A stretch of 64,000 nucleotides of DNA from a virus (IMGVR_UViG_3300025915_000014:18522-82521); one strand, 5' to 3'; counted from the stretch's first letter, positions 657 through 63,359 are shown. Translations and numbers: made by a program. The notes: generated by a model not told the origin, from the letters alone.

Positions 657-686
657 AGTATGCGCGCCGGGCGCGCGAGACTGCAA
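657..686 (-). promoter_or_regulatory. Promoter with palindromic operator (662-676) in spacer
   Basis: TTGCAG-18nt-CATACT; spacer holds GCGCGCCCGGCGCGC. Confidence 0.75.
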
Positions 687-687
687 G

Positions 688-885
688 CTAGTCGCCCGGT
701 TCGCGGGCCTTCTCCAACGTCGCCACCCGCTCGGTCAGCTCGGTGATCTGCCGTTGCGCCTGCGTCGCGACCGCCTGCCACTTCGCGGCCTCCAGGTTCG
801 CCGCGCCGACCTGTTGCGCGTGCAGCGCCTGCAAGTACACGAGCAGCTCCTGCCAGTCGAGCTGCATCCCGTTCGGTGCGCTCAC
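688..885 (-). CDS. Small coiled-coil hypothetical protein
   Basis: 65 aa, heptad-like QAQRQITELTERVATLEK; overlaps upstream stop. Confidence 0.65.
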   Translation of the reverse strand: MSAPNGMQLDWQELLVYLQALHAQQVGAANLEAAKWQAVATQAQRQITELTERVATLEKAREPGD

Positions 886-1175
886 AGCACGCCCGCGAGT
901 TGCTTGGCGAACGCCCGGAAGTCCTGCGCGGTGGGCAACGCCTGCTCACCGCGGTAGATGGCGGCCAGCTTCGCCAGATCACTGAACGCCGACTTGAGCA
1001 CGGCCACATCCCCGCTCGTGTAGTTGATCGGGGCCGCGGTCAGGTCCGTGTCCGGGGTGGCGTCCAGGAAGGCCTTGAAGGCGACGATCTGATCGAACAG
1101 GTTGCGCACCCCCACCGCGAGCGCCCCCGACCGGTCGTCGATGTCGGCGCGGGTCTTCGGATACCCGACGGCCAT
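882..1175 (-). CDS. Hypothetical protein downstream of tail fibre
   Basis: MAVGYPKTRADIDDRSG... preceded by AGGAGG RBS. Confidence 0.7.
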   Translation of the reverse strand: MAVGYPKTRADIDDRSGALAVGVRNLFDQIVAFKAFLDATPDTDLTAAPINYTSGDVAVLKSAFSDLAKLAAIYRGEQALPTAQDFRAFAKQLAGVL

Positions 1176-1183
1176 GCTTCCTC

Positions 1184-3529
1184 CTAGGCGATCTTGGCGC
1201 GCTTGCCGGACGCGAACAGCGCATAGACGGAGCCCGCGTCCACGTACAAGGTGGCGCCGGTGGTCGGCGGCGGCGGCGGCGTCGCCAGCTCCGGTATCCA
1301 CTTGGGACCGTTGACCGCCTTGTCGATGCGGTCGTGCACGTCGCTCTGGCCCTGCCACAGCAGCGTCACCAGACCGTCCAGGGAGATGCCGAGCGACTCA
1401 GGTTCCCCGGGCAGGATCGGCCCGATGTTGTGCTGCACCACCTCCGGCACGTCCTCGGCGATCAGCCCGAACTGTGTCGGGGCCTCCCGCGGGCCGCGCT
1501 TGAGGGTGCCGTCGCTGTAGTAGACGGGGCCCTCGTCGCCGATGTTCTTCTGGAAGTAGCACGCCTTGGCGGCGCGCACCGCCTGCCGCGGGTCGAGATC
1601 CTGCGCCGGGGTGATGTTGCGCTTGATCGTCTGGCTGGACGAGGAGACGACCGTGCCGTCATAGACGACCGACCACACCCCGAGGTCCTTGCGCTGGGTC
1701 ACGTTGTTGCCCACGATCCAGAACCGTTCGTTCAGCCCGGACCCGGCGATGTCGGCGAAGGTCACCCCGATGTTGTTGTTGACCGCCGCGAAGTGCGCCT
1801 CGTCGTGCCCGGACCCACCCGAGCGCGAGTTGTTGTAGTAGAGCAACGTATCGCTGATCATGCTCGTGCCGTGCGTGACCATGAACCGGAAGCCCGGGTC
1901 GGAGCCCTGGTCGACGTCGGCCATCATGTCGAACTGGTAGCCGCGGATCCGCCCGGCCGTGGACGAGGCGCCGGACGAGACGAAGATGTCGGTCTTGATC
2001 GTGGCGAAGAGGTTCGTCGGGTCGGCGTAGATGAGCGAGGCGTAGTCCTCGCGGGCGATGCAGATCCCGCGCAGCGTGCCGCTCGACGCGCCGTACATCA
2101 TTATTCCGGCGTAGTTGCCGCTCGACACGATCGAGTCGATCGAGGCGTACTGGGAGCCGGTGCTCGGGTAAAACCGCACGGTGTCCGGGTTGTTGCCGCC
2201 CGGGTTCATCACGATCCGGGTCCCGGACAGCGCGGTCTGGACGCTGCCGATGGCCAGGAAGTCGCCGGTGGCGCTGTTCAGCCACAGCGTCCGGTTGCCG
2301 GAGCCGTCGAAGCCCTGCAAGCCCGCGGTGGGGTGCAGCTCCACGCGGGCCCCGGTCAGGGTTCCGGCGATGACCCGCGATGCCACCACCAGATCGGCTT
2401 GCAGCTTGGAGGCGGTGACCGAGCCCGCGGCTATCTGCCCGGCGGTGACCGAGTTGGCGGCCAGCTCCGCGGTGTTCACCGCCAACGCGAGGATCTCCCG
2501 GGAGGTGACCGCGTCGGCGGCGATGGTCCCGGCGGACACGGCGTCGGCGGCGATCGTCCCGGCCTGCACCGCCCCCGTGGCGATCTTCCCGGCGATCACG
2601 GATCCTGCGGCCAGCTCGGTGGCGCCGATGGAGGTCGCGGCCACCTCGCGGGCGGTCACCGCATCGGCGGCGATCTTCCCGGCACTGACGGAGTCGGTGG
2701 CGAGCGACGTCGACTGCACCGCCCCCGCGATGATCTTCGGGGTGCTGATGGAGCCGTCCGCTATCTGCGTGGTGGTGACCGCCCCGGCCGCGAGCTTCGC
2801 GGTCGTCACCGCGTTGGCCGCGAGCTGCGTGGCCGTCACCGCATTGGCCGCGATCTTCGTGACGTCGATCGCGTTGACCGCCACCTTGGCCGTCGCCACC
2901 GCCCCGTCGGCGATCTTCAACGTGCTGATCGCGCCGTCCAGGATGTCCTGCCCCACCACCTGCGACGGGGTCGCCGGGCCGCCCTGCAAGGAGGTGGTCG
3001 AGGTGGAGCGCGTGCCGGTGCCGGTGTTCGCCGCGGGCTCCGCCGCGTTCGTGGCGATCAGCACCGCGTAGTAGGGGGCGCTGGTGTCCAGCGGCGCCAC
3101 CGGGATGGACCCGGAGTCGGGCAGGGTGCCCTGGAAGTTGGTGGGGCCCGGGATGAAGTTCGCCGTGCCCGAGAGGTACACCTCGACGTTTTTGAAGTTG
3201 GCCGGTCTGTCGGCGGTGGAGAACGTGCCGTTCCACGACACGACGATGCCGGAGTTGATCGGCGCCAGGTCCGGGGTGTTCGGGCGCGGCGGCGGGCTCG
3301 CGTTCTGGTAGGTGAGGCCGGTGGTGCCGTCGTCCTGCACCCCGACGATCCCGGTCAGCACCCCGTTCGCGTCCCGGATCGGCATCGTCCCCATGATCGT
3401 GGTGGAGCCGAGCTGCGCGGTGCGGAGCTGCTCGTACAGCGCCGTGATGTCCCCGTCGATCGAGGCCAGCCGGTCGGCGAGGCGGCGCTCCGCGGGCGAG
3501 GGCAGCACCCGGTAGGCGGGGGTGGTCAT
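1184..3529 (-). CDS. Tail fibre/minor tail protein with 10-aa repeats and C-terminal S74-type intramolecular chaperone domain
   Basis: About 18 decapeptide repeats (IAANAVTATQ/LAAGAVTTTQ); C-terminal SSQTIKRNI...QFGLIAEDV...GISLDGLVTLLWQG. Confidence 0.8.
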   Translation of the reverse strand: MTTPAYRVLPSPAERRLADRLASIDGDITALYEQLRTAQLGSTTIMGTMPIRDANGVLTGIVGVQDDGTTGLTYQNASPPPRPNTPDLAPINSGIVVSWNGTFSTADRPANFKNVEVYLSGTANFIPGPTNFQGTLPDSGSIPVAPLDTSAPYYAVLIATNAAEPAANTGTGTRSTSTTSLQGGPATPSQVVGQDILDGAISTLKIADGAVATAKVAVNAIDVTKIAANAVTATQLAANAVTTAKLAAGAVTTTQIADGSISTPKIIAGAVQSTSLATDSVSAGKIAADAVTAREVAATSIGATELAAGSVIAGKIATGAVQAGTIAADAVSAGTIAADAVTSREILALAVNTAELAANSVTAGQIAAGSVTASKLQADLVVASRVIAGTLTGARVELHPTAGLQGFDGSGNRTLWLNSATGDFLAIGSVQTALSGTRIVMNPGGNNPDTVRFYPSTGSQYASIDSIVSSGNYAGIMMYGASSGTLRGICIAREDYASLIYADPTNLFATIKTDIFVSSGASSTAGRIRGYQFDMMADVDQGSDPGFRFMVTHGTSMISDTLLYYNNSRSGGSGHDEAHFAAVNNNIGVTFADIAGSGLNERFWIVGNNVTQRKDLGVWSVVYDGTVVSSSSQTIKRNITPAQDLDPRQAVRAAKACYFQKNIGDEGPVYYSDGTLKRGPREAPTQFGLIAEDVPEVVQHNIGPILPGEPESLGISLDGLVTLLWQGQSDVHDRIDKAVNGPKWIPELATPPPPPTTGATLYVDAGSVYALFASGKRAKIA

Positions 3530-3555
3530 GCGCTCATCATGGGCACTCGCCGCCG

Positions 3556-8458: not shown

Positions 8459-9346
8459 TCACAGCGACGACCTCGCGGTCCGCCAGAACACGTCCACCCG
8501 CGATGTGCCGGTCGAGTCCAACCCGGACAGCAGCACCTCTTGGCCGCCCGGCGACACCCGCATGTCCGCCAGCCACGCGGACGCCCCGGTCAGATACCCG
8601 GCGAGGTTCGCCCCGTCGGACTGCCGCCGCACCCGGCGCGACCACGGCTGCGGATCCACCAGCACCGAGTCCCCCTTGGCGATCTTCAACCCGAGCTGGT
8701 ACCAGAACGCGCCCGGCACCTCCACCCGCGGCTGATCAATCGGCCCGTACACGCGGGTCGCCAACCACGCCGGGCGGTACCCGTCGATCTCGAACCCGCG
8801 GCTGCCCGAGCCGTTCCCGGAGGCGTACAGCGGCCCGATCAGCGGCCCGACCAGCCCGCCCGTGTCGTCGGGCACCAGCGCCGTCGAATCCGAGTACTCC
8901 GCGTCCGAGTAGACGTGCGGGGTGATCGTCTGGAACTGGGCGGCGACCGGGATGAACCCGACGTGCACGTTCTCCAGGGTCGCGGGCGTGCACGCGCGCC
9001 CGCGCCCGAACACCCGCCGCTGCTCCCCCGTGTCGTGCAGCCGGTAGGAGAACACCTGGTAGGCCTGCGGAATCAGGCGCGTGTTGTCACCCATGAACGC
9101 ATCCGTGAGCTGCGCCAGCAGCTCCAGCGCGTCCCCCTCGCCCGCACCCAAAATCTCGAGCTCGATGTTCAGGGTGCGCCCGCCCAGCCGGTCGATGCCC
9201 ATGAGCTGCCCGTCCTCGCGCGGCATCGGCTTGTCCTGCACGAGCAGCTCCGGGTAGGCCAGGTCGAGCTTCGTGATGTCGATGGCGGTGCCGTAGCCGA
9301 ACACGAAGTCATCCACGGCGGCCTGGTCCTCACCCAACGCGGGCAT
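8459..9346 (-). CDS. Distal tail (Dit-like) minor tail protein
   Basis: Directly downstream of tape measure gene; MPREDGQLMGIDRLGGRTLNIELEI pattern. Confidence 0.75.
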   Translation of the reverse strand: MPALGEDQAAVDDFVFGYGTAIDITKLDLAYPELLVQDKPMPREDGQLMGIDRLGGRTLNIELEILGAGEGDALELLAQLTDAFMGDNTRLIPQAYQVFSYRLHDTGEQRRVFGRGRACTPATLENVHVGFIPVAAQFQTITPHVYSDAEYSDSTALVPDDTGGLVGPLIGPLYASGNGSGSRGFEIDGYRPAWLATRVYGPIDQPRVEVPGAFWYQLGLKIAKGDSVLVDPQPWSRRVRRQSDGANLAGYLTGASAWLADMRVSPGGQEVLLSGLDSTGTSRVDVFWRTARSSL

Positions 9347-33769: not shown

Positions 33770-33794
33770 AACCCGCGCCGGGCGCGCGTACCTT
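33766..33794 (+). promoter_or_regulatory. Promoter with near-palindromic operator (33773-33787)
   Basis: CCGCGCCGGGCGCGC then TACCTT, 7 nt, GTG of 33802. Confidence 0.65.
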
Positions 33795-35583: not shown

Positions 35584-35612
35584 GGCGCGCCGGGCGCGCA
35601 CCCGGCTAAACT
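35584..35612 (+). promoter_or_regulatory. Promoter with palindromic operator (35585-35599) over -35
   Basis: GCGCGCCGGGCGCGC then ACCCGGC-TAAACT upstream of 35665. Confidence 0.6.
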
Positions 35613-39000: not shown

Positions 39001-39029
39001 ACGTTGCGCGCCGGGCGCGCAGACTTCAA
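39001..39029 (-). promoter_or_regulatory. Promoter with operator (39006-39020)
   Basis: TTGAAG-17nt-CAACGT-6nt-ATG. Confidence 0.8.
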
Positions 39030-39357: not shown

Positions 39358-39386
39358 AGCTTGCGCGCCGGGCGCGCGCGCTTCAA
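39358..39386 (-). promoter_or_regulatory. Promoter with operator (39363-39377)
   Basis: TTGAAG-17nt-CAAGCT-6nt-ATG. Confidence 0.8.
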
Positions 39387-45066: not shown

Positions 45067-45096
45067 AGGAGTACGCGCCCGGCGCGCATCTCTGCC
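45067..45096 (-). promoter_or_regulatory. Operator-containing putative promoter (45073-45087)
   Basis: TGGCAG..GCGCGCCGGGCGCG-TACTCC upstream of lipoprotein gene; -10 imperfect. Confidence 0.55.
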
Positions 45097-48435: not shown

Positions 48436-48457
48436 AGCTTATACGCGCCCGGCGCGC
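48436..48457 (-). promoter_or_regulatory. Operator (48443-48457) adjoining -10 TATAAGCT
   Basis: GCGCGCCGGGCGCG-TATAAGCT. Confidence 0.65.
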
Positions 48458-48474
48458 ATGGCCGTGGCGGGGGT

Positions 48475-49789: not shown

Positions 49790-49809
49790 GTGACTCCTGG
49801 TGTGGTGGG

Positions 49810-50557: not shown

Positions 50558-50614
50558 CGCGTCACCATAAGTGCGCGGCGACCCCCCTCCTGATACACGA
50601 CACGCCGAACGAGT

Positions 50615-51372: not shown

Positions 51373-51398
51373 GGGGGGGCTCCTTCTCCTGTGGTGGG

Positions 51399-53486: not shown

Positions 53487-53791
53487 GACGGGCCCCCGCT
53501 CTGTGCGTCGTGGATCAGCTCGGCGTCCGCGACCCGCACCACGACCCGCCCGCGCCAGTGCGACGGGGTGCCGTAGACCGCGCGGAGCGCCATCTCGGCG
53601 TCGTGCTTGGTGCGCCACACCTGCGGGCCGGGATGGGCGAGCCCGCCGTAGGTGGTGCCCCAGCCCTGATCCGGGCCGAACCACCAGGAGGTGAGCGCCC
53701 GCCCGGACGGGGCGACGTAGGTGTGCGCGACCACCCAGCCCTTGGCGCCCCGGTAGTAGGCCACCCCGCCGTACCGCGACGGCTTGGTCAT
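53483..53791 (-). CDS. Hypothetical protein
   Basis: ATGA overlap. Confidence 0.5.
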   Translation of the reverse strand: MTKPSRYGGVAYYRGAKGWVVAHTYVAPSGRALTSWWFGPDQGWGTTYGGLAHPGPQVWRTKHDAEMALRAVYGTPSHWRGRVVVRVADAELIHDAQSGGPS

Positions 53792-53964
53792 GACGTCCAC
53801 CGCCGGGCGCGCTGCTCGGCCGCGATGACCTCGGACAGGTCGTCGACGGCGTCGGCGAGGTCGCTCAGCTCGCCGTCGAGCATGTCCCGCAGGATCGCCC
53901 GCGCGGCGGGCTTGTCGTCGGACATCACGGCGAGCAGCGCGTTGGTCTCCACGAACTGGGTCAT
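53788..53964 (-). CDS. Hypothetical protein
   Basis: 58 aa, ATGA overlaps both sides. Confidence 0.5.
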   Translation of the reverse strand: MTQFVETNALLAVMSDDKPAARAILRDMLDGELSDLADAVDDLSEVIAAEQRARRWTS

Positions 53965-54149
53965 GACCCGCCCCCGTGGGTGCGGATGCTGTCGATCGAC
54001 ACCCAGGATGTGACCACGATGCGCACGTAGTACATCCCGTCCAGGTTCGGGCCGCGGACGATCTCCACGGTCTGCCCGGAGACCGGGCCCAAGTCCTCGT
54101 CGTACTTGATCTGCACCCGATCCCCCGGGCGGTAGGCAGGCTCAGACAT
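53961..54149 (-). CDS. Small SH3-like protein
   Basis: YRPGDRVQI..TVEIV..YYVRI. Confidence 0.5.
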   Translation of the reverse strand: MSEPAYRPGDRVQIKYDEDLGPVSGQTVEIVRGPNLDGMYYVRIVVTSWVSIDSIRTHGGGS

Positions 54150-54606
54150 CACGCGCCTCCTCGGGGAGGGCGAAGAACGCGGACGGGCGGGCCCGCCGCA
54201 CCTCCGCCACACCGTGCCGCTCCCGGGCCCGCGCCAGCTCCCGCGGGTGGATGTACGCCACCCGGATACCGGCGTAGCCGGTGGTCTCGACGACCCCGGC
54301 CGCCCACACCCGCGCCGACAGGCTGAACAGCACCTCGGTACCGCGGGCCGGGTTCTCCAGCCGCTCGGTGGTCGCCGAGCGCGGCGCGCCCTGGTGGCTG
54401 TAGGCGTCGCAGAGCCGGGCGAGCCGCCCCCGGTCGGCGAGCTGGGTGGTGATGGTCGGCGGGGTGTAGTCGCCGCGGCGGGAGGCCGGGACGACGGGGA
54501 TGAGGGTTGGGTTGGGCGGCGGCGTGCAGAGGTGGCAGTAGTAGACGGGTCCGATGTGCCACACCCCGTCCGGGGTGTGGTGCTCGCTGGTGCGTGGGGC
54601 GGTCAT
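54142..54606 (-). CDS. Hypothetical protein
   Basis: 154 aa in operon. Confidence 0.5.
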   Translation of the reverse strand: MTAPRTSEHHTPDGVWHIGPVYYCHLCTPPPNPTLIPVVPASRRGDYTPPTITTQLADRGRLARLCDAYSHQGAPRSATTERLENPARGTEVLFSLSARVWAAGVVETTGYAGIRVAYIHPRELARARERHGVAEVRRARPSAFFALPEEARDV

Positions 54607-54821
54607 CGGACGGTCCAGCCGTTGTCGTAGTCGTGCAGGTTCATCGGGAACCGGTAGCCGCGCCGCTGCCCGCCCATCTGGTGCATCAGGGCGTAGCGGA
54701 CCGGGACGCCGGTCTCGTCCTTCACCTCGGAGATGTTGATGATGCGAAGCCACTCGGGGCGGCCCTCGTTGGTGCGGAGCACGTCGCCGGGCTCCAGCTC
54801 GGCCAGCCGCTTGATTGTCAT
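54603..54821 (-). CDS. Hypothetical protein
   Basis: ELEPGDVL; RBS AGGA. Confidence 0.55.
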   Translation of the reverse strand: MTIKRLAELEPGDVLRTNEGRPEWLRIINISEVKDETGVPVRYALMHQMGGQRRGYRFPMNLHDYDNGWTVR

Positions 54822-54851
54822 GACGGGTCCTTCTGCGTGGTGGGTTGTGGA

Positions 54852-55265
54852 TCAGGCGTGCACGTTGCGGTGGATCTTGCAGGTGGCGCAGCGGCGGCCG
54901 GGCCCGGTGAAGCCGGTGCAGGCGGGCAGCTCGGGGGCGGCGGCGCGCTCGACGAGCGCGGGGTCGATGTAGACCGTGTCTCCGCCGGTGGCGGTGATCG
55001 CTACCCGCAGGTAGGCGCGGCGGAAGCGGCGGCCGTGGCCGTAGCCGAACTCGGCGATGCGCTCGAAGGTGCCGCGGTGCTCGCCGTCGTCGGCGAGGTA
55101 GGTCAGGTCCGCCCCCCGCGCGATGCCGGGCAGCCCGGCTTCGGCGGTGAGGTGGATGCGGCGCTCGGTGGCGGCCTCGGCGGCGGCGGCGAGGTCGAGT
55201 TCGACCAGGGCGGCGATGCGGCTGCGGCGGTCGGTGCCGTCGATTGTCCAGCGGGCGGAAGTCAT
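54852..55265 (-). CDS. Hypothetical protein with C-terminal Cys cluster, leaderless
   Basis: CTGF..CATC..H; ATG 6 nt after CATACT. Confidence 0.65.
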   Translation of the reverse strand: MTSARWTIDGTDRRSRIAALVELDLAAAAEAATERRIHLTAEAGLPGIARGADLTYLADDGEHRGTFERIAEFGYGHGRRFRRAYLRVAITATGGDTVYIDPALVERAAAPELPACTGFTGPGRRCATCKIHRNVHA

Positions 55266-55271
55266 ACTCCC

Positions 55272-55300
55272 AGTATGCGCGCCCGGCGCGCGTGGTGCAA
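55272..55300 (-). promoter_or_regulatory. Promoter with operator (55277-55291)
   Basis: TTGCAC-17nt-CATACT-6nt-ATG. Confidence 0.8.
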
Positions 55301-55305
55301 GCCGG

Positions 55306-55818
55306 TTAGGCGTCGGGGTCCTTGCGGTGCCGCCGCTTGATCTTCCGCTGGACGTGCTCCTCCAGAGCGGCCCGCTCCTCCAGCTCGGCCTCCGCATCCG
55401 CCTTCGCGATCGCATCCGCGCGGCGCTGCTCGACCTGCTCCAGCCACACCCCCTTGGCGTCCCGCTGGCGGCCCCCGGTCTCCAGTAGCACCCCGCCGCC
55501 GTACTGCACCGACCGGGAGAGCACTTCCTTGGTCCGCCAGTCGAGCACCTCGTAGCGCCAGCGGGTGCAGTCACACCAGTAGTGCACCTCCCGCGCGTCC
55601 ACCCCCGTGCCCCAGTTGCTGGCGGCCGGGACGACGACCGGATCGTTGAGCAGGAACCCGAGATGCCGCCCGCCCGCGGCGCACAGCAGCGCCCACGGCG
55701 TCATGTCCTCGTAGCTCTTGACCCGCACCGTGGGCGTGTGCGCGAGGATCGCCTGCCCGCGCTGCTCGATGGCGGTGACGGGGCGGGCTGATCCGGCGGG
55801 CTTGTTCGCTCCGGTCAA
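55306..55818 (-). CDS. Hypothetical protein downstream of whiB
   Basis: TTG start after GAGAGGG; C..H..CDC; charged C-terminus. Confidence 0.55.
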   Translation of the reverse strand: MTGANKPAGSARPVTAIEQRGQAILAHTPTVRVKSYEDMTPWALLCAAGGRHLGFLLNDPVVVPAASNWGTGVDAREVHYWCDCTRWRYEVLDWRTKEVLSRSVQYGGGVLLETGGRQRDAKGVWLEQVEQRRADAIAKADAEAELEERAALEEHVQRKIKRRHRKDPDA

Positions 55819-55870
55819 CGAAGCACCCTCTCTTGTGGTTGGGACGGGCCCGCCCCGGCGTAAACCGGGT

Positions 55871-56122
55871 TTACGCGGTGCGGGCCCTGGTGCGGGCGTT
55901 GCGGCGCTTGAGGGCGCGGCGCTCGTCCTCGGCCATGCCGCCCCACACACCCGCGTCCTGCCCCGTCTCCAGGGCGAACGTCAGGCACTCGGAGACGACC
56001 GGGCAGCGACGGCAGACCGTCTTCGCCTCGGCGATCTGCTCCAGCGCCGGGCCGGACGTGCCGACCGGGAAGAAGAGCTCCGGGTCCTCATCGCGGCAGA
56101 GCGCGCGGTGACGCCAGTCCAT
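55871..56122 (-). CDS. whiB1: WhiB1/WblE-like Fe-S transcription factor
   Basis: MDWRHRALCRDEDPELFFPVG..CRRCPV..C..GVWGG..ERRALKRR; 4 Cys; RBS GGGAGG. Confidence 0.93.
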   Translation of the reverse strand: MDWRHRALCRDEDPELFFPVGTSGPALEQIAEAKTVCRRCPVVSECLTFALETGQDAGVWGGMAEDERRALKRRNARTRARTA

Positions 56123-56174
56123 GATGGGCCTCCCTTGGTGGGCGGGGTTAGCGGTTTACGTGGTGGGAGTGCCA

Positions 56175-56203
56175 ACGGTACGCGCCCGGCGCGCATAGCG
56201 CCA
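56175..56203 (-). promoter_or_regulatory. whiB promoter with operator (56180-56194)
   Basis: TGGCGC-17nt-TACCGT; spacer carries GCGCGCCGGGCGCG. Confidence 0.7.
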
Positions 56204-56207
56204 GGGT

Positions 56208-56834
56208 TTAGTCCTGGTGGTGTCGGCCGCGGTGCCGCCCCCCCGCCGTCGAGGTCGGATCCGACGACGCGGCCTCGGGCACCGCGGCATCGGGCGAGGT
56301 GAGTGTGGACTCGCCCGGGTCCGTCGTCGCGTCAGTTGTCGGCGTGTCCTCGGTGGACGTCGGGTCCGAGGTCGGCGCGGATGTCGGTACTGACGTCGGG
56401 GCTGACGTCAGTACCGACGACTGCGGCATCGACGACGGCGTCGGGAGCACCGCGGCCAACGGCGGCGCCACCACCACGGGCAGCGGGCGCACCCGCGGTG
56501 GCGTCGGAACCGCGCCCCCGTCACGCGGCACCGACGGCACCCCCCGCGCGGGCGCAGCACCGGTTGCGGCCGGGCGCGACCTCCGCGCGATCATCGTCCC
56601 CGGCGGCGGAATGGCGGCGGGCCGCGCCGGAGACACGGCAACCGTAGTCGCGGTGATCGGCGCCGCCGTCGCCGGATAGCCGTGCAGCCCCCGCCGCAAC
56701 GGCTCGAACATCGGCAGCGGCCCGACCACCGCCGATACCACCACGCCCAGGATCAGCACCAGCCCCGCGACGGCCGCGAGCGAAACCCGGATCAAGTCCC
56801 GGGGCAGCCCCAACGGCCCCTCCAACGTGTCCAT
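56208..56834 (-). CDS. Membrane-anchored Pro/Thr-rich protein
   Basis: One TM then low-complexity PT/ST tail. Confidence 0.55.
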   Translation of the reverse strand: MDTLEGPLGLPRDLIRVSLAAVAGLVLILGVVVSAVVGPLPMFEPLRRGLHGYPATAAPITATTVAVSPARPAAIPPPGTMIARRSRPAATGAAPARGVPSVPRDGGAVPTPPRVRPLPVVVAPPLAAVLPTPSSMPQSSVLTSAPTSVPTSAPTSDPTSTEDTPTTDATTDPGESTLTSPDAAVPEAASSDPTSTAGGRHRGRHHQD

Positions 56835-56921
56835 GCCCGCGCCCCCCGCCGCCCCGCTGTGTTCATCGTCGCCGCGGGCGCACGCGCTACCTACCGGGCT
56901 AAGGGGCTACCCTGCACGGTC

Positions 56922-57155
56922 ATGGCCGCCGTCATCGAAGTCACCGCCGCCGCGTACGTCGTGGCCGCGCTCGACGCGCTCGGAGACGCCGACCGGTACG
57001 GCGACGACACCTGCGCCCATCTGCGGGCCGCGCTCGCCCAGGACCCGATCGAGCCGGGCACCCTCGCCCGCGCCGCCCGCGTCGTCGACATCACGATCGC
57101 CAGCGCGCAACGCGCCAAGGCCCTGATCCGGGACGCGCAGCGGGAGGCCTGTTAG
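56922..57155 (+). CDS. Hypothetical helical protein
   Basis: TACCCT-8nt-ATG. Confidence 0.55.
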   Translation: MAAVIEVTAAAYVVAALDALGDADRYGDDTCAHLRAALAQDPIEPGTLARAARVVDITIASAQRAKALIRDAQREAC

Positions 57156-57214
57156 GTGACGTCGGTCACATTGTCCGGAATCCGGGTGGTTCCCGGGCCT
57201 TAGGAATGTGTGGC

Positions 57215-57394
57215 CTAGACGCGCCGCCACCACGGGATCCCCGCAGCCCGGTCGGCCTGCTCCGCCCGGCGCAGCCCGGCACGCTGCTGACGCCGCCACT
57301 TGCCGCCCTCACCCCGCGCCTCCGCGGCCCGCTCCTGGGCGCGCAGCGCCCGGTTCTCCGCGGCTGTCGCGTACCGCACCCGCCCCTTGGTCAT
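57215..57394 (-). CDS. Small basic protein
   Basis: 59 aa, ATGA overlap with upstream gene. Confidence 0.45.
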   Translation of the reverse strand: MTKGRVRYATAAENRALRAQERAAEARGEGGKWRRQQRAGLRRAEQADRAAGIPWWRRV

Positions 57395-57546
57395 CGCTGC
57401 CTCCGCTGTTCGCGCTTGCGTTTGCGTCCGGCGGCCAGCATCCGGCGGGCCTGCGCGGCCGGAACGTGGTTGTCAGGGCAGCCGCACGAGCGGCGCGTCT
57501 TGGTGGAGTCGTAGCCGCAGACCGGGCACTTGCCCCACAGCGTCAT
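57391..57546 (-). CDS. Small Zn-finger protein
   Basis: CPVC..CGC; start overlaps GntR stop. Confidence 0.5.
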   Translation of the reverse strand: MTLWGKCPVCGYDSTKTRRSCGCPDNHVPAAQARRMLAAGRKRKREQRRQR

Positions 57547-58418
57547 GGCGTCCACCCGTCCGTCAGGTGGGTCTCGAAGCGCAGCTTGAGCCCGGCCCCC
57601 AGGCGCACCACCACCGACGCCTCCAGCGGGCGCAGCCGTGCCGCCGTCACCATCTGGTGCGGGATCCGGTAGCCGGTGAAGATCCGCAGGATGTCCCATA
57701 CCGGGCCCGGCGTGGACAGCTCCAGCGCGTCCCGCTCGGCGACGGACGCTGTGCGGGTCGCCGCCTCCTCGATCACATCGGCGATGCGGTAGCCGATCGA
57801 GCGCAGCTCGCCCACGGTGCCGCACGGCCACGGCTGCATCGTCGGGTCCTCCACCGGGGTGCCGCGCACCAGGTCGTACGGCATCACCGAACGCTGCAAC
57901 TGCTTGGGCACCCCATCCACCAGCTTGACCATGTCCCGGATGAGCACGAGCGCGCCCTCCGGCAGGTCCAGCCGGGCCGCGTCCACCGCGTCCGCCTCCG
58001 CGACGGTGTAGACGGCGCGCACCCGGTACTGCCGCGCCCAGTCGGTGACGCCGTGCTCCTCGGCGAACGCCGACCACAGCGGCGGCGGCGTCCCCTCCGG
58101 TAGCCGGTCCAGGAGATCCTGCGCTCGCTGGTAGCGGGCCGTAGACAGGTGCACCACCTCCACCGGGGGCGCCACCTTGGTCGCGTACCCGGCCGCCTTC
58201 ACCACCAGCCCTTCGTGCACCAGCTCGGCGAGCGCCGCGGTCACCACGTTCTTGCTCAGCCCGGCCTGCTCGGCGAGATCCGCCTCGGACGGCAACGCCT
58301 CATCCGGGCGCAGCTCCCCCGCCCCGATCGCCTCACGAATGATCATGGCGAGCTGTCGGTACAGCGCCGGACGCTCCGGATGCCGGGAGATCGAGCGCTC
58401 ATCGAGATGCAGCGGCAT
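57543..58418 (-). CDS. GntR-family repressor with UTRA-like domain (KorA/KorSA/TraR type)
   Basis: LYRQLAMIIREAIGAGELRPDEALPSEADLAEQAGLSKNVVTAALAELVHEGLV..G; divergent from FtsK operon. Confidence 0.88.
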   Translation of the reverse strand: MPLHLDERSISRHPERPALYRQLAMIIREAIGAGELRPDEALPSEADLAEQAGLSKNVVTAALAELVHEGLVVKAAGYATKVAPPVEVVHLSTARYQRAQDLLDRLPEGTPPPLWSAFAEEHGVTDWARQYRVRAVYTVAEADAVDAARLDLPEGALVLIRDMVKLVDGVPKQLQRSVMPYDLVRGTPVEDPTMQPWPCGTVGELRSIGYRIADVIEEAATRTASVAERDALELSTPGPVWDILRIFTGYRIPHQMVTAARLRPLEASVVVRLGAGLKLRFETHLTDGWTP

Positions 58419-58488
58419 GCACGGATCGTAGCCCTGCACCCCTAACGGGTTACCGGGCTAGGCCCATAGGCCTGTACCCTCCGACAGC

Positions 58489-58641
58489 ATGACCGCGACC
58501 GCCCCCCTGCTGGCGCTCGCCCTTGCGGGGGAGGCCGCCCCGTGTGCGCCCCGACGCGCCGCCTCCCCCGCGCCCCGTCCGTCTGCTCCCACCACACCGA
58601 CGGCGTGCCCGGCCCCGACCGGCGCGCCGCCGGGCCCGTGA
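58489..58641 (+). CDS. Possible 50-aa Pro/Ala-rich first gene of transfer operon
   Basis: TACCCT-8nt-ATG. Confidence 0.35.
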   Translation: MTATAPLLALALAGEAAPCAPRRAASPAPRPSAPTTPTACPAPTGAPPGP

Positions 58642-58653
58642 CGGGAGCCGGTG

Positions 58654-59133
58654 GTGAGCCGCCGCCGCCACTCCCCGGGGGCCGACCTCGGGGTCGGGCT
58701 GGCGCTGTTGCTGGGCGGGATCGGGTTCCTGTTGGTGGGGCTGTTTAACGGGTGGGGTCCGGCGTGGCACTTCGTGGGTGGGGTGGCGGCGATGACCGGG
58801 GCCGGGCGGTCGTATCGGGCGGGTCGGCGGGTGCAGGAGCGGCGGCGGCGGAGCGGGCCCAAGCCGGTGCCGCGCAGCCATCGGTGGTCGGAGGCGTTGC
58901 CGTGGGCGTCGGAAATGTATGGGACCCCCCGGACGAGGCGGACCGGGCAGGGCGGGTCGTCGTCGGGTCCGCCGTGTAGCGCGGCGTGCCGTGCCTCGAC
59001 CGCGCCGCGGTCGTCGTGTAAGTGCTCATGCGGGGGGGCGACGCACGGCACCGCGGCGCGGAACGGGGGGACGCGCACCAACGGCTCGGGGAACGGGTCG
59101 GGGACGCGCACCAAGCGGAAGCCGCCGCCGTGA
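58654..59133 (+). CDS. Two-TM protein with C-terminal CxxxC..CxCxCGGxxHG motif
   Basis: Hydrophobic N-terminus; CSAACRASTAPRSSCKCSCGGATHG; stop overlaps FtsK start. Confidence 0.65.
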   Translation: MSRRRHSPGADLGVGLALLLGGIGFLLVGLFNGWGPAWHFVGGVAAMTGAGRSYRAGRRVQERRRRSGPKPVPRSHRWSEALPWASEMYGTPRTRRTGQGGSSSGPPCSAACRASTAPRSSCKCSCGGATHGTAARNGGTRTNGSGNGSGTRTKRKPPP

Positions 59134-60848
59134 TCGCCGTGCTGATCGTGCTCGTGCTGCGGTTCGTGTCCGGCCGCGAGCTCGACGGGCATCGCCGCAC
59201 CAACTCCACCTGGCGGTTGCCCGCGGGCGGGCCGCAGGCGGTGCTGGTCCGCGGCGGGCGGACGTCGTGGTGGGTGCATCAGTCGCTGCGCTACCGGGCC
59301 GGGGTCCGGCTCGGCGTCACGTCGGTGGTGTTCGGGTTCGGGTGGGGCATGCTGCACGACCCCGCGGCGACCACGCTGATCTCCCAGGTGGCGGTCGGGG
59401 TGGCGGTGATGGCCGGGCTGCGGACGCTGGCCTACCGGGTTGCGGAACGGGCGCAGCATCGGCGGCTGGCGCGGCTGCACCGCGCGCTGGCCCCGCAGGT
59501 CGGGTGGCCGGTCGCCGGGCGCCGCCCGGGGTCGTGGCTGAAGGTGCCGTGGGACTTCCTCGACGACCCGGACGCGCAGATCACCGTGAAGCTGCCCGCC
59601 GGGTACATCCACGCCGGGAAGAAGGCGGAGGAGGTGGAGCGAACCGTCGCCGCCGTGTTGGGGCTGCCCGACCCGGAGTTCGCCGATGACTACGAGCGCC
59701 GCTCCCCGCTGCTCATCGTCGGGCGGGCGTCGCCGCCGCCGCTGCTGCTGCCCTTGAGCGAGGTAGGTGGGTTGCTGGGGGAGACCGCCGACGGGGTGCC
59801 GCTGCTCGGGGTGGCCGCCCGGGATGAGCCGGTGACGGTGAACCTCGACTCGGAGTCCCCGCATGTGGCGATCTCCGCGGGCACCGGGGGCGGTAAGTCG
59901 GTGCTGATGATGAGCATGGCGGCGCAGGAGTTGCGCCGCGGCGCCCATCTGCTGATCTTCGACATCAAGCGGACGAGCCATTTGTGGGCGGCCGGGTTGC
60001 CCGGAGTCTTGTACTGCCGCACCCCGGAGCAGATCCACAACGCGTTGATGGCGTTGAGCGATGAGGTGGATCGCCGGTACGCGCTGATCGAGGCGGCGGC
60101 GGACCTGTCGGGCACGGTGGATCCGTTGATCGTGGGGCCGCGGTTGTTGATCCTCGGCGAGGAGCTGAACGCGACCATGCAGGCGCTGCACTCCTACTGG
60201 ATGCAGATCCGGCCGAAGGGGGCGCCGGGGCAGTCCCCGGCGTTGCTGGCGTGGGGGAAGTTGCTCTACATGGGCCGGGCCGGGCGGATGCACGTGCTCG
60301 GGGTGGCGCAGCGGTTGTCGGCGCGGGCCGGGGGCGGTGGGGACGCGCGCGAGAACTTCGGCACCCGGATTCTGGCGCGGGCGACGGCGTCGTCGTGGCG
60401 GATGCTGGCCCCGGAGATCCTGCCGCCGCCGCCGCCGTCGCAGATCCCGGGTCGGTTGCATGTGGTGGCGTCCGGGGCGGCGACGGAGACGCAGGCGATC
60501 CTGTGGACCCCGGCGGAGGCGCGGGCGTGGGCGTGCCCGGTCTGGTCGGAGGATGGGACCGAACCTAGGACGGAACCGGGGACAACGACCCGGGACAGCG
60601 CGCGTGAGCAGGCGATTCTCTACGGTGTCCCGACCCGGCTGGCGTTGCCCGCCGCGGCGGTCCTGGTGACGTTGCGGGAGGCGGCCCGCGATGGCGGGTT
60701 GTCGCACTCGTTCACCGTGGAGGCGTTGCGGAAGCGCGCCCAGCGGGATCCGGGGTTCCCGCCGAAGCGCGGCACCCGGTGGGGGCGCGGCGGCGCCTCA
60801 AACGTCTACGACGTGGCGGAGCTGCGGGCGTGGGCGGCGGCGCTGTGA
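59130..60848 (+). CDS. TraB/Tra-like FtsK/SpoIIIE DNA translocase
   Basis: N-terminal TMs; Walker A AGTGGGKS; LILGEELN; GRAGRMHVLGVAQRL; RENFGTRIL; C-terminal wHTH-like ALRKRAQRDPGFP..YDVAELRAW. Confidence 0.85.
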   Translation: MIAVLIVLVLRFVSGRELDGHRRTNSTWRLPAGGPQAVLVRGGRTSWWVHQSLRYRAGVRLGVTSVVFGFGWGMLHDPAATTLISQVAVGVAVMAGLRTLAYRVAERAQHRRLARLHRALAPQVGWPVAGRRPGSWLKVPWDFLDDPDAQITVKLPAGYIHAGKKAEEVERTVAAVLGLPDPEFADDYERRSPLLIVGRASPPPLLLPLSEVGGLLGETADGVPLLGVAARDEPVTVNLDSESPHVAISAGTGGGKSVLMMSMAAQELRRGAHLLIFDIKRTSHLWAAGLPGVLYCRTPEQIHNALMALSDEVDRRYALIEAAADLSGTVDPLIVGPRLLILGEELNATMQALHSYWMQIRPKGAPGQSPALLAWGKLLYMGRAGRMHVLGVAQRLSARAGGGGDARENFGTRILARATASSWRMLAPEILPPPPPSQIPGRLHVVASGAATETQAILWTPAEARAWACPVWSEDGTEPRTEPGTTTRDSAREQAILYGVPTRLALPAAAVLVTLREAARDGGLSHSFTVEALRKRAQRDPGFPPKRGTRWGRGGASNVYDVAELRAWAAAL

Positions 60849-61333
60849 ACGGCTCCCAAGTGTTGCTGCTGTCGCTGTTGGGCGCCGGGCTGTATGTGGG
60901 GGCGCGCGGCACGTGGAAGCGGCGGCGGAAGCGGCGGAGCCGGTTCGTGTTGGGCCGGTGGCTGCGGCGCGGGCCGGGCACCTGCTACCGGTTCCGGGTG
61001 CGGCATCCCCGCTCCGGGCGGGTGGTGAACGGCTACGTGGGACAGACCCGCCGCCCGGTGCAGGTCCGCATCGACGAGCACCTGCTCGGTACCGCGACCG
61101 CGGCCCCGAAGGTGTGGGCGGACACGGTCGTGTCCTGGGACGTGCTGTGGACCGGCACATGCACCCAAGGCGGGCTGAACTGGCGCGAACGCTGGTACAT
61201 CGTGTCGCGGCGCCCGCTCTACAACGTGCAGTGGAACACCGCGAACCGGCGGCGGATTCTGCCGTCGCGGGCGGCGCGGCAGCGGATCCGGCGGTCCCAG
61301 ACGGGCCGGAACGGGTGGCGGTGGGTGCCGTGA
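60845..61333 (+). CDS. Membrane-anchored GIY-YIG nuclease-like protein
   Basis: N-terminal TM; CYRF..YVGQT..RIDEH..ERWYI..PLYN. Confidence 0.7.
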   Translation: MNGSQVLLLSLLGAGLYVGARGTWKRRRKRRSRFVLGRWLRRGPGTCYRFRVRHPRSGRVVNGYVGQTRRPVQVRIDEHLLGTATAAPKVWADTVVSWDVLWTGTCTQGGLNWRERWYIVSRRPLYNVQWNTANRRRILPSRAARQRIRRSQTGRNGWRWVP

Positions 61334-61518
61334 CGGTGTCGCTGGTGAAGGGCGACGGCGCTGAGGTCAAGGAGCCGCTGCGGGCGCGGGCGGCGGCGGC
61401 GGTCGAGGACTGGGTCAACGCGATCCCGTGCATCGGTGACCTGTTCCCGGTGCAGTTCTGGTTGATCTGCGGGCCGCCGCTGCTGGTGCTGATCTTCACG
61501 TTGTGGACGCGGCCGTGA
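61330..61518 (+). CDS. Small membrane protein (Spd-like position)
   Basis: C-terminal hydrophobic helix; GTGA overlap. Confidence 0.55.
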   Translation: MTVSLVKGDGAEVKEPLRARAAAAVEDWVNAIPCIGDLFPVQFWLICGPPLLVLIFTLWTRP

Positions 61519-61548
61519 TGCGCGCCGAGTGTGTCGCCCAATCGGTGG

Positions 61549-61577
61549 TACTGCCGTGCGCGCCAGGCGCGCATACT
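61549..61577 (+). promoter_or_regulatory. Promoter with operator (61558-61572)
   Basis: GCGCGCCAGGCGCG-CATACT-6nt-ATG. Confidence 0.75.
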
Positions 61578-61583
61578 TGGGTC

Positions 61584-62009
61584 ATGGCCGCAACCAGCAC
61601 CCCGGACCCCAGCCCCACCCGCGAGGGCGTGACCGTGGTCCCCGGCGTCCACGTCGGCCGCGACGACATCGTCACGCTGCCCCCCCGCGGCGGCAGGCTG
61701 CGGAGCTGGCGCCGCTACGACCTCGCCTACAACCGGGATCAGATGGTCATCTGGTCGGCCACGCCGCGCGGCATCGCCCGCAGCACCGTCGCCGGGCCCG
61801 AGCAGGCCGCCGTCTACATCCGCTCCACCGTGCACGACGACGAGCGCTACCACCGCGGCCCCACCGCGCTCGCCGTGTTCTGGCTGGCCGACGACCCCAC
61901 CGAGCGCTACGGCCACGGCTCCCGCGAAGAGGTCGCGCTGATCACCGGGATGTCCGAGATCGTCAAGGGTCTCGTCGCCCGCCCCACCGCCATCCCCGAG
62001 GAGCTGTGA
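61584..62009 (+). CDS. Hypothetical protein, leaderless
   Basis: 141 aa. Confidence 0.65.
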   Translation: MAATSTPDPSPTREGVTVVPGVHVGRDDIVTLPPRGGRLRSWRRYDLAYNRDQMVIWSATPRGIARSTVAGPEQAAVYIRSTVHDDERYHRGPTALAVFWLADDPTERYGHGSREEVALITGMSEIVKGLVARPTAIPEEL

Positions 62010-62218
62010 TGAGCACCCCCACCTACGAGCTGGTCATGCTCGGCGAGCCCGAGCCCTGCGAGCGCTGCGGCGCCCTCGTGCAGGCCCACCGCCGCGTCAT
62101 CGACGGCGCCATGCGCGTCTCGGACATGCGCGCCATCGACGGGGTGCTGCGCGTCATGCCCGGCGGGCACACCCCCGACTGGTGCACCGACATCCGCGAC
62201 GGGCGGATCCGGCGATGA
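62009..62218 (+). CDS. Small Cys protein
   Basis: CERC..H..C; TGATG overlap. Confidence 0.55.
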   Translation: MSTPTYELVMLGEPEPCERCGALVQAHRRVIDGAMRVSDMRAIDGVLRVMPGGHTPDWCTDIRDGRIRR

Positions 62219-62379
62219 GCCATCACTGCCACGTCCCGGCCCGGACGAAGAAGAACCCGTGGGTCTGCCCGGTCTGCCGCTCACCGTGGACGATCACGCC
62301 GCGGGCCACGGCCGCGAAGTCCCGCCGCGAGAACATCCGCGTCAACGGCCACCAGCCGTGGTTCTTCGGGCGGCCGTGA
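62215..62379 (+). CDS. Small Zn-finger protein
   Basis: HHC..CPVC. Confidence 0.5.
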   Translation: MSHHCHVPARTKKNPWVCPVCRSPWTITPRATAAKSRRENIRVNGHQPWFFGRP

Positions 62380-62528
62380 TGCCGCTGCCGATCCTGGTCC
62401 TGATCTTCTTCGGGCCCGCCGTGTACTTCCTCGCGACCTTCCCGCTGCCGGTCGCGGTCGTGCTCTCCGTGGTCTGCGCCCTGTTCACCCACCGGCTGCT
62501 GACCAGCGTGCTCGGCCCCTGGCACTGA
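62379..62528 (+). CDS. Small membrane protein
   Basis: Hydrophobic 49 aa. Confidence 0.55.
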   Translation: MPLPILVLIFFGPAVYFLATFPLPVAVVLSVVCALFTHRLLTSVLGPWH

Positions 62529-62539
62529 GGAGAGATCCG

Positions 62540-62737
62540 ATGAAGAACGTCGCCATTCGCTACCTGCGCCCCGCCGAGTTCTGGGCCTGCTTTGCCGGTC
62601 TATGGCTGGTGTTGCTGGTCGCCATGGCCCAGCTCGACGGGCTGCCCCGGGTAGTGGTCTGCGGCGGCCTCACCGTCGGCTGGCTGTGCCTGATGGTCGA
62701 GCGCTTCCGCAACTGGCAGGCGCACCGCCGCCGCTGA
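62540..62737 (+). CDS. Small two-TM protein
   Basis: RBS GAGGAG; two hydrophobic segments. Confidence 0.6.
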   Translation: MKNVAIRYLRPAEFWACFAGLWLVLLVAMAQLDGLPRVVVCGGLTVGWLCLMVERFRNWQAHRRR

Positions 62738-62809
62738 ACCTGACCACCCCGGCCCCCACCACATCAGGGCCCCGAGCAGCACCACCCCACCACAGAGAAG
62801 GAGCCCGCC

Positions 62810-62938
62810 ATGGGCGACAGCATCGAGCGCAAGGCCGAACGGATCCGGATGGAGAACAAGGCGAAGGCGGCGAACACGACCGGCAAGAAGGTCGCCGCGG
62901 TCGTGCGGGTCGTCGCGAAGAAGACGACCGGCAAGTGA
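62810..62938 (+). CDS. Small basic protein
   Basis: RBS AAGGAG; 42 aa. Confidence 0.5.
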   Translation: MGDSIERKAERIRMENKAKAANTTGKKVAAVVRVVAKKTTGK

Positions 62939-63040
62939 TCAAAGGGAGGTGGTAGCACCCTGACGGACGGTGACGGCCCCGCCCCCGGCGCCCCCACAGC
63001 GCCCACGGGTCGCGGGGCCGTCGCCGCGCCAGCACGGTAA

Positions 63041-63067
63041 CCGGCCCCGAGGCTGCCTCGGGGCCGG
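63041..63067. terminator. Hairpin between convergent genes
   Basis: CCGGCCCCGAGG-CTG-CCTCGGGGCCGG. Confidence 0.65.
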
Positions 63068-63089
63068 ACGCGCGGGTGTATCCGCGGGA

Positions 63090-63323
63090 TCAGACGGCCA
63101 GCCGCGCCGCCCGCAGGTAGGCCTGCCGGGCGGCGTCGGCGCGCTTGGCGGCGGCGGTCATCTGCTTGCGCTCGCGCTCGTCGGTGATGATGTTGTTGCA
63201 GTGCTGCCACATGGCGGCCCGGTCGCGCAGCACGATGGCCTGCCCGCCGAAGGCGCCGAGGGCGTCGCAGACGATCCAGGCACCGTCGGCGCATTCGTGG
63301 CGGGTGAAGCGGTCATCGTCCAT
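63090..63323 (-). CDS. Hypothetical protein, leaderless
   Basis: ATG 7 nt after CAACGT. Confidence 0.6.
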   Translation of the reverse strand: MDDDRFTRHECADGAWIVCDALGAFGGQAIVLRDRAAMWQHCNNIITDERERKQMTAAAKRADAARQAYLRAARLAV

Positions 63324-63330
63324 ACCGTCC

Positions 63331-63359
63331 ACGTTGCGCGCCCGGCGCGCACCCTGCAA
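63331..63359 (-). promoter_or_regulatory. Promoter with operator (63336-63350)
   Basis: TTGCAG-17nt-CAACGT. Confidence 0.8.

Follow-up and report, generated by a model that had tools for sequence, protein, structure and literature searches.

In the uncultured soil actinobacterial phage recorded in IMG/VR as IMGVR_UViG_3300025915_000014 (G000; 71.7% G+C, CheckV completeness 91%), a 15-bp palindrome, GCGCGCCNGGCGCGC, recurs in the gaps between genes. The window analysed here is the whole stretch of 64,000 nt that corresponds to bases 18522-82521 of this 82,521-bp record, and positions refer to the window unless they are marked as genome positions. In G000 and in G001, a 97-kb IMG/VR relative likewise estimated to be 91% complete, the palindrome is confined to intergenic DNA, stands in register with -35 and -10 boxes and start codons, continues as a dyad beyond its core and is conserved within one phage clade. 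The reading we favour, with moderate confidence, is that each copy is an operator embedded in a promoter of the sigma-A type, through which one dimeric regulator would repress about 15 transcription units. From sequence we infer the activity of these promoters, the binding of a protein and the sign of its regulation.

Recurrence of the palindrome between genes

An earlier note, made from the sequence of the window alone, had proposed that a single repressor gates a dispersed set of promoters through this palindrome, with perfect copies at 662, 35585, 39006, 39363, 55277, 61558 and 63336 and one-mismatch copies at 33773, 45073, 48443 and 56180. All eleven are present, and the window holds no further copy with at most one mismatch. 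The note had expected fewer than one perfect copy by chance, and this estimate holds: 100 dinucleotide-preserving shuffles gave a mean of 0.04 copies and a maximum of 1, against the 7 observed. Outside the window, G000 carries further copies at genome 103, 842 (one mismatch), 13183 and 13779, which brings the whole record to 10 perfect and 5 one-mismatch copies; G001 has 11 perfect and 5 one-mismatch copies.

Genes in G000 were called with a codon-usage log-odds model, which gave 134 genes and left 11.5% of the DNA intergenic. All 15 copies with at most one mismatch lie between these genes; equal frequency in coding DNA, an outcome that the earlier note had named as speaking against its proposal, is therefore not what is found. 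Two copies had overlapped automatic gene calls because the true start is an in-frame ATG 11-12 nt past the palindrome. The copies in G001 are intergenic as well, except for one at 82165 that is likely a chance match, and among perfect copies 21 of 21 in the two genomes are intergenic, where the intergenic share is 11.5-12.6% of the DNA. The commonest intergenic 10-mers of both genomes are words from the palindrome. Copies with 2-3 mismatches are mostly coding and look like background, so that site quality is bimodal and real sites appear to be essentially invariant. With 15 copies in G000 and 15-16 in G001, both phages carry many near-identical intergenic inverted repeats.

Register with promoter elements

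Thirty sites, 15 from each genome, were aligned in the orientation of the nearest gene start. The 14 defined positions of the palindrome are almost invariant, and the dyad extends from the 15-bp core to 19 bp, AT-GCGCGCCNGGCGCGC-AT, i.e. AT-GCGCGCC-N-GGCGCGC-AT (A at -2 in 16, T at -1 in 20, A at +15 in 23 and T at +16 in 15 of the 30 sites). Such symmetry, continuing for 2 nt past either end of the core, agrees with binding by a dimeric protein. Neither strand is preferred at the central base, which is C in 12 sites and G in 15 when read in promoter orientation.

Upstream of the palindrome, usually at a distance of 3 nt, lies a -35-like T(T/A)GC box, in which the most frequent bases at -9 to -6 are T, T/A, G and C, each present in about half of the sites; the resulting spacer is 17 nt long, or 18 nt at site 662. 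Matches to the -35 are clear in G000 (TTGCAG, TTGAAG, TTGCAC) and weaker in G001 (TAGCTA, TAGCCG). The usual -10 box is made of the palindrome's last C followed by ANNNT (CAAGCT, CATACT, CAACGT), and at this canonical offset A stands at position 2 in 23/30 sites and T at position 6 in 18/30. Most -10 boxes begin with C rather than T because this base is the end of the palindrome. A (T/C)ANNNT hexamer followed by 5-8 nt and then by ATG or GTG with an open reading frame (ORF) of at least 40 codons is found at 18/30 sites, compared with 3.6% of 6000 random positions, and a hexamer that starts on the last base of the palindrome at 12/30, compared with 0.13%. At one of the 18, G001 24680, a leader is more probable, judging by the downstream sequence that is conserved in the metagenome fragment L313.

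The earlier note had described a -35 box, 17-18 nt, a -10-like hexamer and a gene start 6-7 nt later, and this geometry is borne out at 662, 39006, 39363, 55277, 61558 and 63336, where CANNNT is followed after 6-7 nt by ATG and the -35 boxes are TTGCAG, TTGAAG, TTGCAC or TACTGC. The exception that it made for 35585, where the palindrome overlaps the -35, is likewise seen. Its view that a mismatch at the palindrome end supplies the T of the -10 box is right for 56180, which has a full TANNNT, and fails at the other two sites named for it, 45073 having TACTCC and 48443 a TAAGCT that lies 2 nt further on. At the remaining sites of the alignment, the -10 stands at another distance, or else the gene has a leader that includes a ribosome site (whiB, the lipoprotein gene, the gene at 35665). 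The -10 follows the palindrome at an offset of 0, 2, 6, 9 or 19 nt, the shifted palindromes covering the spacer or the -35, and some palindromes have divergent gene starts on both sides (genome 13183; G001 9204 and 12321). This variation in offset, together with the divergent starts, fits an operator and not an element contacted by RNA polymerase. Four sites carry T in place of the promoter-proximal C, with loss of the dyad there, which looks like a trade-off of operator symmetry against -10 quality. The same T variant precedes whiB in G001 (TATCGT) and in L313 (TACTCT) and has been kept in three lineages.

In the start-site map of M. tuberculosis, the TANNNT box precedes the start site by 7-12 nt, -35 boxes are weak and a quarter of the genes are leaderless (PMC3898074). 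The phage promoters resemble these actinobacterial sigma-A leaderless promoters in their TANNNT-type box, their weak or variable -35 and a predicted start at the start codon, but differ in that the -10 is mostly C-first, with four sites switched to T. Past the stop codon, about 9 of the 13 units tested end in a GC-rich stem-loop of 10-14 bp, as the earlier note had claimed, so that its description of these units as stand-alone cassettes is a fair one.

Conservation within one phage clade

G001 is 72% identical to G000 in terminase and 86% in capsid; the two share virion, lysis and recombination genes at 45-86% identity, and their accessory arms share very few genes. Eight related metagenome fragments (L310, L313, L329, L337, L352, L380, L394 and L413) encode homologues of G000 and G001 proteins that are 40-80% identical, and they carry 1-2 perfect copies each with the same promoter layout and AT-flank pattern; another, L332, is a near-identical copy of G000. 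Since the core is identical in G001 and the fragments while flanks and proteins diverge, the palindrome is conserved as a trait of a single phage clade. No copy occurs in more distant relatives, whose capsids are 51-77% identical and which include a complete 51-kb provirus. In scans of IMG/VR, the matches listed for the 15-mer were mostly single chance matches, and among those listed for the 15-mer and a 17-mer only G001, besides G000, had multiple copies; the strict composite pattern gave 0 matches. Searching metagenomes for the palindrome plus ATAC gave single matches for the most part, about as many as a rough chance expectation. Megablast of 24 kb found no cultured close relative, a 49-nt promoter query returned noise only, a capsid profile found no prophage relative in GTDB genomes, and terminases of Rhodococcus, Gordonia and Mycobacterium phages reach no more than 36% identity.

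What about bacterial chromosomes? Four Pseudonocardiaceae-type genomes contain 1-7 copies per 7-11 Mb, and a reversed-pattern control gives as many; the phage has 10 per 82.5 kb. Of 401 Actinomycetia genomes, 6 (the unpublished G015 among them) have a single copy of the 17-mer with T/A flanks, against 5 for the control. Equal frequency in the host chromosome, the other outcome that the earlier note had held against itself, is thus countered by a background frequency in 405 actinomycete genomes, a set that does not include the actual host, and a host-wide motif or regulon appears unlikely. The closest cellular homologues of the phage WhiB protein, 85-90% identical, are found in Pseudonocardiaceae (Lentzea 89%, Streptoalloteichus 88%, Pseudonocardia, Saccharopolyspora), which is a hint at this family as the host group, and the DUF397 and TraB/GntR genes would fit a mycelial actinomycete host. 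Host whiB1 promoters have Crp-type sites and lack the palindrome.

A possible mechanism

We envisage the module as a promoter of the host sigma-A (HrdB) type, with a T(T/A)GC -35, a 17-nt spacer and a (C/T)ANNNT -10, in which the spacer would be nearly filled by the 15-bp palindrome, or 19 bp with its AT flanks. RNA polymerase would start 6-7 nt past the -10, in most units on the A or G of the start codon, which would give a leaderless mRNA; other units would have a short leader with a ribosome site. RNA polymerase would have to compete with a dimeric, sequence-specific protein that would occupy the palindrome, at about -29 to -11. As a protein in this position would exclude the polymerase, repression is the likelier sign, and the regulator probably acts as a repressor. 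About 15 units would be repressed at once. Most consist of small accessory genes that are lineage-specific and have terminator hairpins of their own; whiB, the lipoprotein gene and a peroxidase unit are also among the targets. Neither the recombination/replication operon nor the structural operon has the palindrome at its head. The early timing that the earlier note had assigned to the regulon is an unproven suggestion from gene position. Upstream extension of the dyad, a variable -10 offset, invariance without compensatory change and the lack of a U-run together favour a protein site over a polymerase element or an RNA hairpin. The protein is probably encoded by the phage, because the sites are invariant and actinomycete chromosomes show no enrichment.

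Sites and units in the window

The eleven sites and the genes behind them (lengths in amino acids, aa) are as follows.

662..676, minus strand: perfect; -35 TTGCAG 686-681, -10 CATACT 662-657, ATG 650, leaderless layout; 54-aa gene, 486-650, preceding the lysis cassette; the unit belongs to a segment that has been replaced when compared with G001; the site falls between the tail genes and the lysis cassette.
33773..33787, plus strand: one mismatch (first base C); -10 TACCTT 1 nt later, then 7 nt, GTG 33802; 161-aa gene, 33802-34287.
35585..35599, plus strand: perfect, over the -35 and spacer of a TAAACT promoter (35607-35612); leader of ~50 nt; membrane protein gene, 35665-36000; the site borders a 1.1-kb non-coding region with iterons.
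39006..39020, minus strand: perfect; -35 TTGAAG 39029-39024, -10 CAACGT, ATG 38994; 124-aa gene, 38620-38994, with a terminator-like hairpin next.
39363..39377, minus strand: perfect; -35 TTGAAG 39386-39381, -10 CAAGCT, ATG 39351; 69-aa gene, 39142-39351.
45073..45087, minus strand: one mismatch (promoter-proximal T); TGGCAG-type -35, imperfect -10 TACTCC, leader and ribosome site, ATG 45006; lipoprotein gene, 44491-45006.
48443..48457, minus strand: one mismatch (end T); -10 TAAGCT 2 nt later, then 7 nt, ATG 48428; ORFs 48351-48428 and then 48130-48354, upstream of the peroxidase gene.
55277..55291, minus strand: perfect; -35 TTGCAC 55300-55295, -10 CATACT, ATG 55265; 137-aa gene, 54852-55265.
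56180..56194, minus strand: one mismatch, the end T completing the -10 TACCGT; leader with a CCCACCACG motif and ribosome site; WhiB1-like gene, 55871-56122, minus strand.
61558..61572, plus strand: perfect (central A); -10 CATACT, ATG 61584; 141-aa gene, 61584-62009, inside a GntR/TraB-like module.
63336..63350, minus strand: perfect; -35 TTGCAG 63359-63354, -10 CAACGT, 7 nt, ATG 63323; 77-aa gene, 63090-63323.

Both targets that the earlier note had singled out, whiB1 and the lipoprotein gene, do lie behind sites (56180 and 45073), each with a leader. The promoter at 39363 is a near-duplicate of that at 39006, including an upstream AT-rich palindrome, AAGAATCTT. In three promoters this palindrome lies within a conserved stretch of ~20 nt just upstream of the -35 (39040-39060 and 39395-39415; G001 ~8830-8850), possibly as a second operator or as an UP-like element. 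The promoter at 63336 matches that at genome 103 over about 45-65 nt; terminal inverted repeats were considered for this end-proximal pair and rejected in favour of a promoter duplicate, as the match extends over only these ~45-65 nt.

Further recurrent elements surround the units. Near-identical terminator-like hairpins, composed of GCAGCCCCCGCC, a loop of 4-5 nt and GGCGGGGGCTGC, stand behind two cassettes (38576-38620 and 44440-44490), and related words are among the enriched intergenic 10-mers. In leadered units, the motif CCCACCACGAA lies ~10-25 nt past the -10 and before the ribosome site (window 56150-56165; genome 13825; G001 9240, 10835, 12690 and 24215; fragments L310, L313, L380 and L413); it also occurs in one unrelated WhiB-carrying contig, L244, and may be a shared element of the 5' untranslated region or only common ribosome-site context. 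A leader GTGCAG(G/T)TTGCAACC with an inner palindrome, GGTTGCAACC, is conserved in two relatives (G001 24700-24740 and L313 ~1930-1965), where it follows the palindromic promoter downstream of whiB. The 1.1-kb non-coding region (34539-35664; G001 ~36830-37810) contains a 27-nt GT-rich inverted repeat (35175-35201 and 35242-35268), a 207-nt block (34837-35042) with 73% identity between G000 and G001, and four direct copies of (G/T)AGATACAC(G/C) immediately before palindrome 35585; in G001, GGAGATACACGC repeats likewise flank a copy of the palindrome. The region is a candidate replication origin or packaging site.

The search for a binding protein

Several findings weigh against operators of a single phage regulator. 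No DNA-binding protein shared by G000 and G001 was found by Pfam and PHROGs annotation of about 100 proteins, by genome comparison or in two AlphaFold models. Even at permissive thresholds, G001 shows no homologue of the HTH_17 (43092) and GntR (57543) proteins, which the earlier note had named as possible binders, or of an XRE-like protein (genome 11211-11591); as G001 uses an identical motif, all three are unlikely binders. The note's reading is supported in so far as the copies make up a single group of palindromes, dispersed over the genome and embedded in promoters, that greatly exceeds chance, is missing from coding DNA and is not enriched in actinomycete chromosomes. G001 offers a candidate of its own for which G000 has no homologue, a 102-aa protein with a sub-threshold sigma-70-region-4 helix-turn-helix (HTH); its gene stands behind a canonical copy, where the sites are most densely clustered. 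Among recognised transcription factors, G000, G001 and L313 share only the WhiB1-like protein. WhiB binds sigma region 4 and is not known to recognise palindromes or dyads. Other WhiB1-carrying virus contigs, like the host whiB1 promoters, are without the palindrome, which leaves WhiB unsupported as the binder. The phage protein is of the WhiB1/WblE type, and its 95% identity between G000 and G001 reflects the general conservation of the family, in which cellular homologues reach 89-90%.

Two orphan proteins beside the divergent control region are also common to both phages (genome 11632-11970 and 13228-13581). Searches of 5.8 billion proteins found no relative of the former and one of the latter. 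AlphaFold gave poor models for both, a helical hairpin for 11632-11970 and an unconfident Cys5His2 region with one long helix for 13228-13581, and neither model shows a DNA-binding fold. On the promoter side, a scan with an E. coli-type consensus found no promoter in 44001-64000, so that the promoter calls rest on a looser actinobacterial consensus. Some promoters are plain duplicates (39006/39363 and genome 103/window 63336), which means that part of the similarity is due to shared descent, and promoter activity itself is a prediction.

In the 40-bp divergent gap (genome 11592-11631, locus L131) between the XRE-like gene and the first rightward gene lies a different, imperfect dyad, TACCGCCCG...GGGCGGGTA, which may be the operator of the XRE-like protein and form a separate switch beside the palindrome system.

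Alternative explanations

Phages copy host operators such as LexA boxes. The clade may have done the same here, in which case a host regulator would bind the palindrome and the accessory units would follow a host signal. An identical motif in phages that share almost no early genes and have no recognisable DNA-binding regulator but WhiB would be accounted for in this way. However, neither the four Pseudonocardiaceae-type nor the 401 Actinomycetia genomes, which do not include the actual host, show an excess over control, the Crp-type sites of host whiB1 promoters are not this palindrome, and host regulons usually have degenerate sites, whereas the phage sites are nearly invariant. A host regulator still counts against our preferred reading; we regard it as unlikely, with a modest chance of being right.

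Could the palindrome work without a dedicated protein, as an intrinsic promoter feature (a rigid or cruciform-prone spacer, or a supercoiling sensor), or simply be inherited with a duplicating cassette? The register with -35 and -10, fixed in 12/30 sites, and the two pairs of duplicated promoters are what this would predict. Yet the core is invariant where its surroundings diverge, across lineages at 40-80% protein identity, the symmetric AT flanks on the upstream side have no role for the polymerase, and the -10 offset varies. The alternating CG runs are 6 bp long, which is short for Z-DNA. The switch by methylation or supercoiling that the earlier note had offered as its second option finds no support, given the same length of these runs and the varying placement of the palindrome relative to the -10. 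We consider an explanation without a dedicated protein improbable.

The exchange of accessory genes between phages deserves a separate look. The first gene after a site is common to G000 and G001 in only 5/30 cases, compared with 122/288 genes overall (Fisher p = 0.003); DNA homology around whiB ends within the palindrome; the unit at 662 belongs to a replaced segment; and whiB stands alone as a unit between two sites in G001 and L313, but is joined by an extra gene in G000. All this would be expected if the palindromes were mainly recombination or cassette-exchange sites, either as short homology or as the target of a recombinase. Accessory genes that travel with their own promoters would give an equal pattern, though, no integrase or transposase was found among the about 100 proteins scanned, and the exact register with the -10 and start codon would be left unexplained, so that exchange as the main role seems decidedly improbable. 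The few shared first genes and the homology that ends in the palindrome at whiB suggest that a site may double as a cassette-exchange junction. A combined version is likewise improbable: the clade would keep a pool of interchangeable cassettes of 1-2 genes, each made of promoter-operator, leaderless gene and terminator, and the palindrome would be both their control and their exchange point, with one regulator of an unrecognised family and the invariant 19-bp site as swap homology.

Finally, a role as an RNA hairpin in read-through transcripts, as terminator or processing mark, is very hard to credit: the palindrome can form a 6-bp GC stem with a 3-nt loop (about -11 kcal/mol, to -17.7 with the AT flanks) and lies between co-directional genes, but no U-run follows it (A(A/T)NCT comes next), a terminator scan does not list it, its arms are identical in 28/30 sites without compensatory variation, the fold is no stabler than that of shuffled sequence in 3/5 cases, and separate, longer terminator hairpins already stand behind the stop codons.

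Gene content of the phage

G000 has a long virion operon on the minus strand (terminase, portal, S78 protease, HK97-type capsid, tape measure); behind it come holin and GH25 in a lysis cassette. A recombination/replication arm carries RecT, YqaJ, RusA and a replication initiator. The remaining arms consist mostly of small genes without assigned function, plus a few recognisable ones: WhiB, a GntR-UTRA protein beside an FtsK/TraB-like ATPase, an HTH_17 protein, an N6/N4 methylase, DUF397, DUF6011 and a protein with an animal haem peroxidase domain. Rfam and tRNA scans of the window gave no match. Inside the virion operon, a 1475-aa ORF (17910-22337, minus strand) has no Pfam match; its G001 counterpart is 1600 aa long, with only ~550 residues that align, at 45% identity. 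An N4-like virion RNA polymerase with hairpin promoters was considered for this protein and dropped, as nothing points to a phage polymerase.

The GntR-UTRA gene is divergent from an FtsK/HerA-type ATPase gene (57543-60848), a layout that equals TraR/KorA-TraB of Streptomyces conjugative plasmids, i.e. plasmid-type transfer or spread genes inside a virion-encoding genome; G001 has a DUF2637 protein instead. The peroxidase-domain protein (467 aa, 46296-47699, minus strand; Pfam E = 5e-17) is unusual phage cargo. It is 80% identical in G001 and 73% identical in L310, each time with a copy of the palindrome nearby.

Comparison with known systems

The motif is useful for annotation and unlikely to surprise a specialist. 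In an uncultured phage with hardly any genes of assigned function, it maps about 15 transcription units and marks real small ORFs together with their start positions, the leaderless starts correcting several automatic gene starts. The 19-bp site is usable as a probe for the regulator. With a full operator in a 17-nt spacer and one base shared with the -10, the module could also be of use in high-GC actinomycetes as a compact promoter part that can be regulated.

How does such an arrangement compare with dispersed repeats in other phages and mobile elements? The Streptomyces phage phiC31 reportedly has conserved inverted repeats (CIRs) that are bound by its c-gene repressor. These are many highly conserved inverted repeats of ~17 bp, intergenic and promoter-associated, that act as operators of one phiC31 repressor, and in this they resemble the palindrome described here. 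Their sequence is another one, however, and no repressor gene of the phiC31 or any other type is recognisable in our phage, where the repeat fills a sigma-A-like spacer, shares a base with the -10 and is predicted to be bound.

Cluster A mycobacteriophages provide a second parallel: the stoperators bound by L5 gp71 are dozens of near-identical repressor sites in short intergenic gaps that silence many units at once (PMC9283540, PMC6550527). Stoperators are asymmetric 13-bp sites, monomer-bound and orientation-dependent, whereas the palindrome is a perfect dyad that overlaps promoters and has an unbiased central base (C 12, G 15), so that no asymmetric, orientation-following site of the L5 type is seen. 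Cluster O mycobacteriophages carry a 17-bp repeat, TGTTCGGNNNCCGAACA, with an invariant 7-bp inverted repeat and a function that is not known (PMC4351075). Invariant 7-bp inverted arms and many copies per genome are common to both, and Cluster O genomes also have leaderless SigA-like promoters (PMC4351075). Their repeat differs in its 3-bp centre (7-3-7), in numbering more than 30 copies, about a third of them inside genes, and in lying outside promoter spacers (PMC4351075); the palindrome has a sequence other than TGTTCGGNNNCCGAACA, a 7-1-7 layout and no true copy in a gene.

On Streptomyces conjugative plasmids, the SpdA2 protein binds the sps palindrome, a 12-bp site in or beside spdA that affects plasmid stability (PMC4170104). 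Here too a short GC-rich palindrome is conserved in divergent actinomycete mobile elements, the sps example shows that a small protein encoded by such an element can recognise a site of this sort (PMC4170104), and the phage carries a TraB/GntR module as well. The two palindromes differ in sequence, though, and sps does not act on a promoter (PMC4170104); the Cys-rich phage protein (genome 13228-13581) has no match among PLSDB plasmids. The palindrome is not an intrinsic terminator, as a hairpin forms with no U-run behind it, nor is it a spacer operator of the MerR type, which has 19-20 bp between -35 and -10, compared with 17 nt here and 18 at site 662. A dispersed set of promoter-associated repeats is a kind of circuit already familiar from phiC31, L5 and Cluster O phages; the sequence of the palindrome is new.

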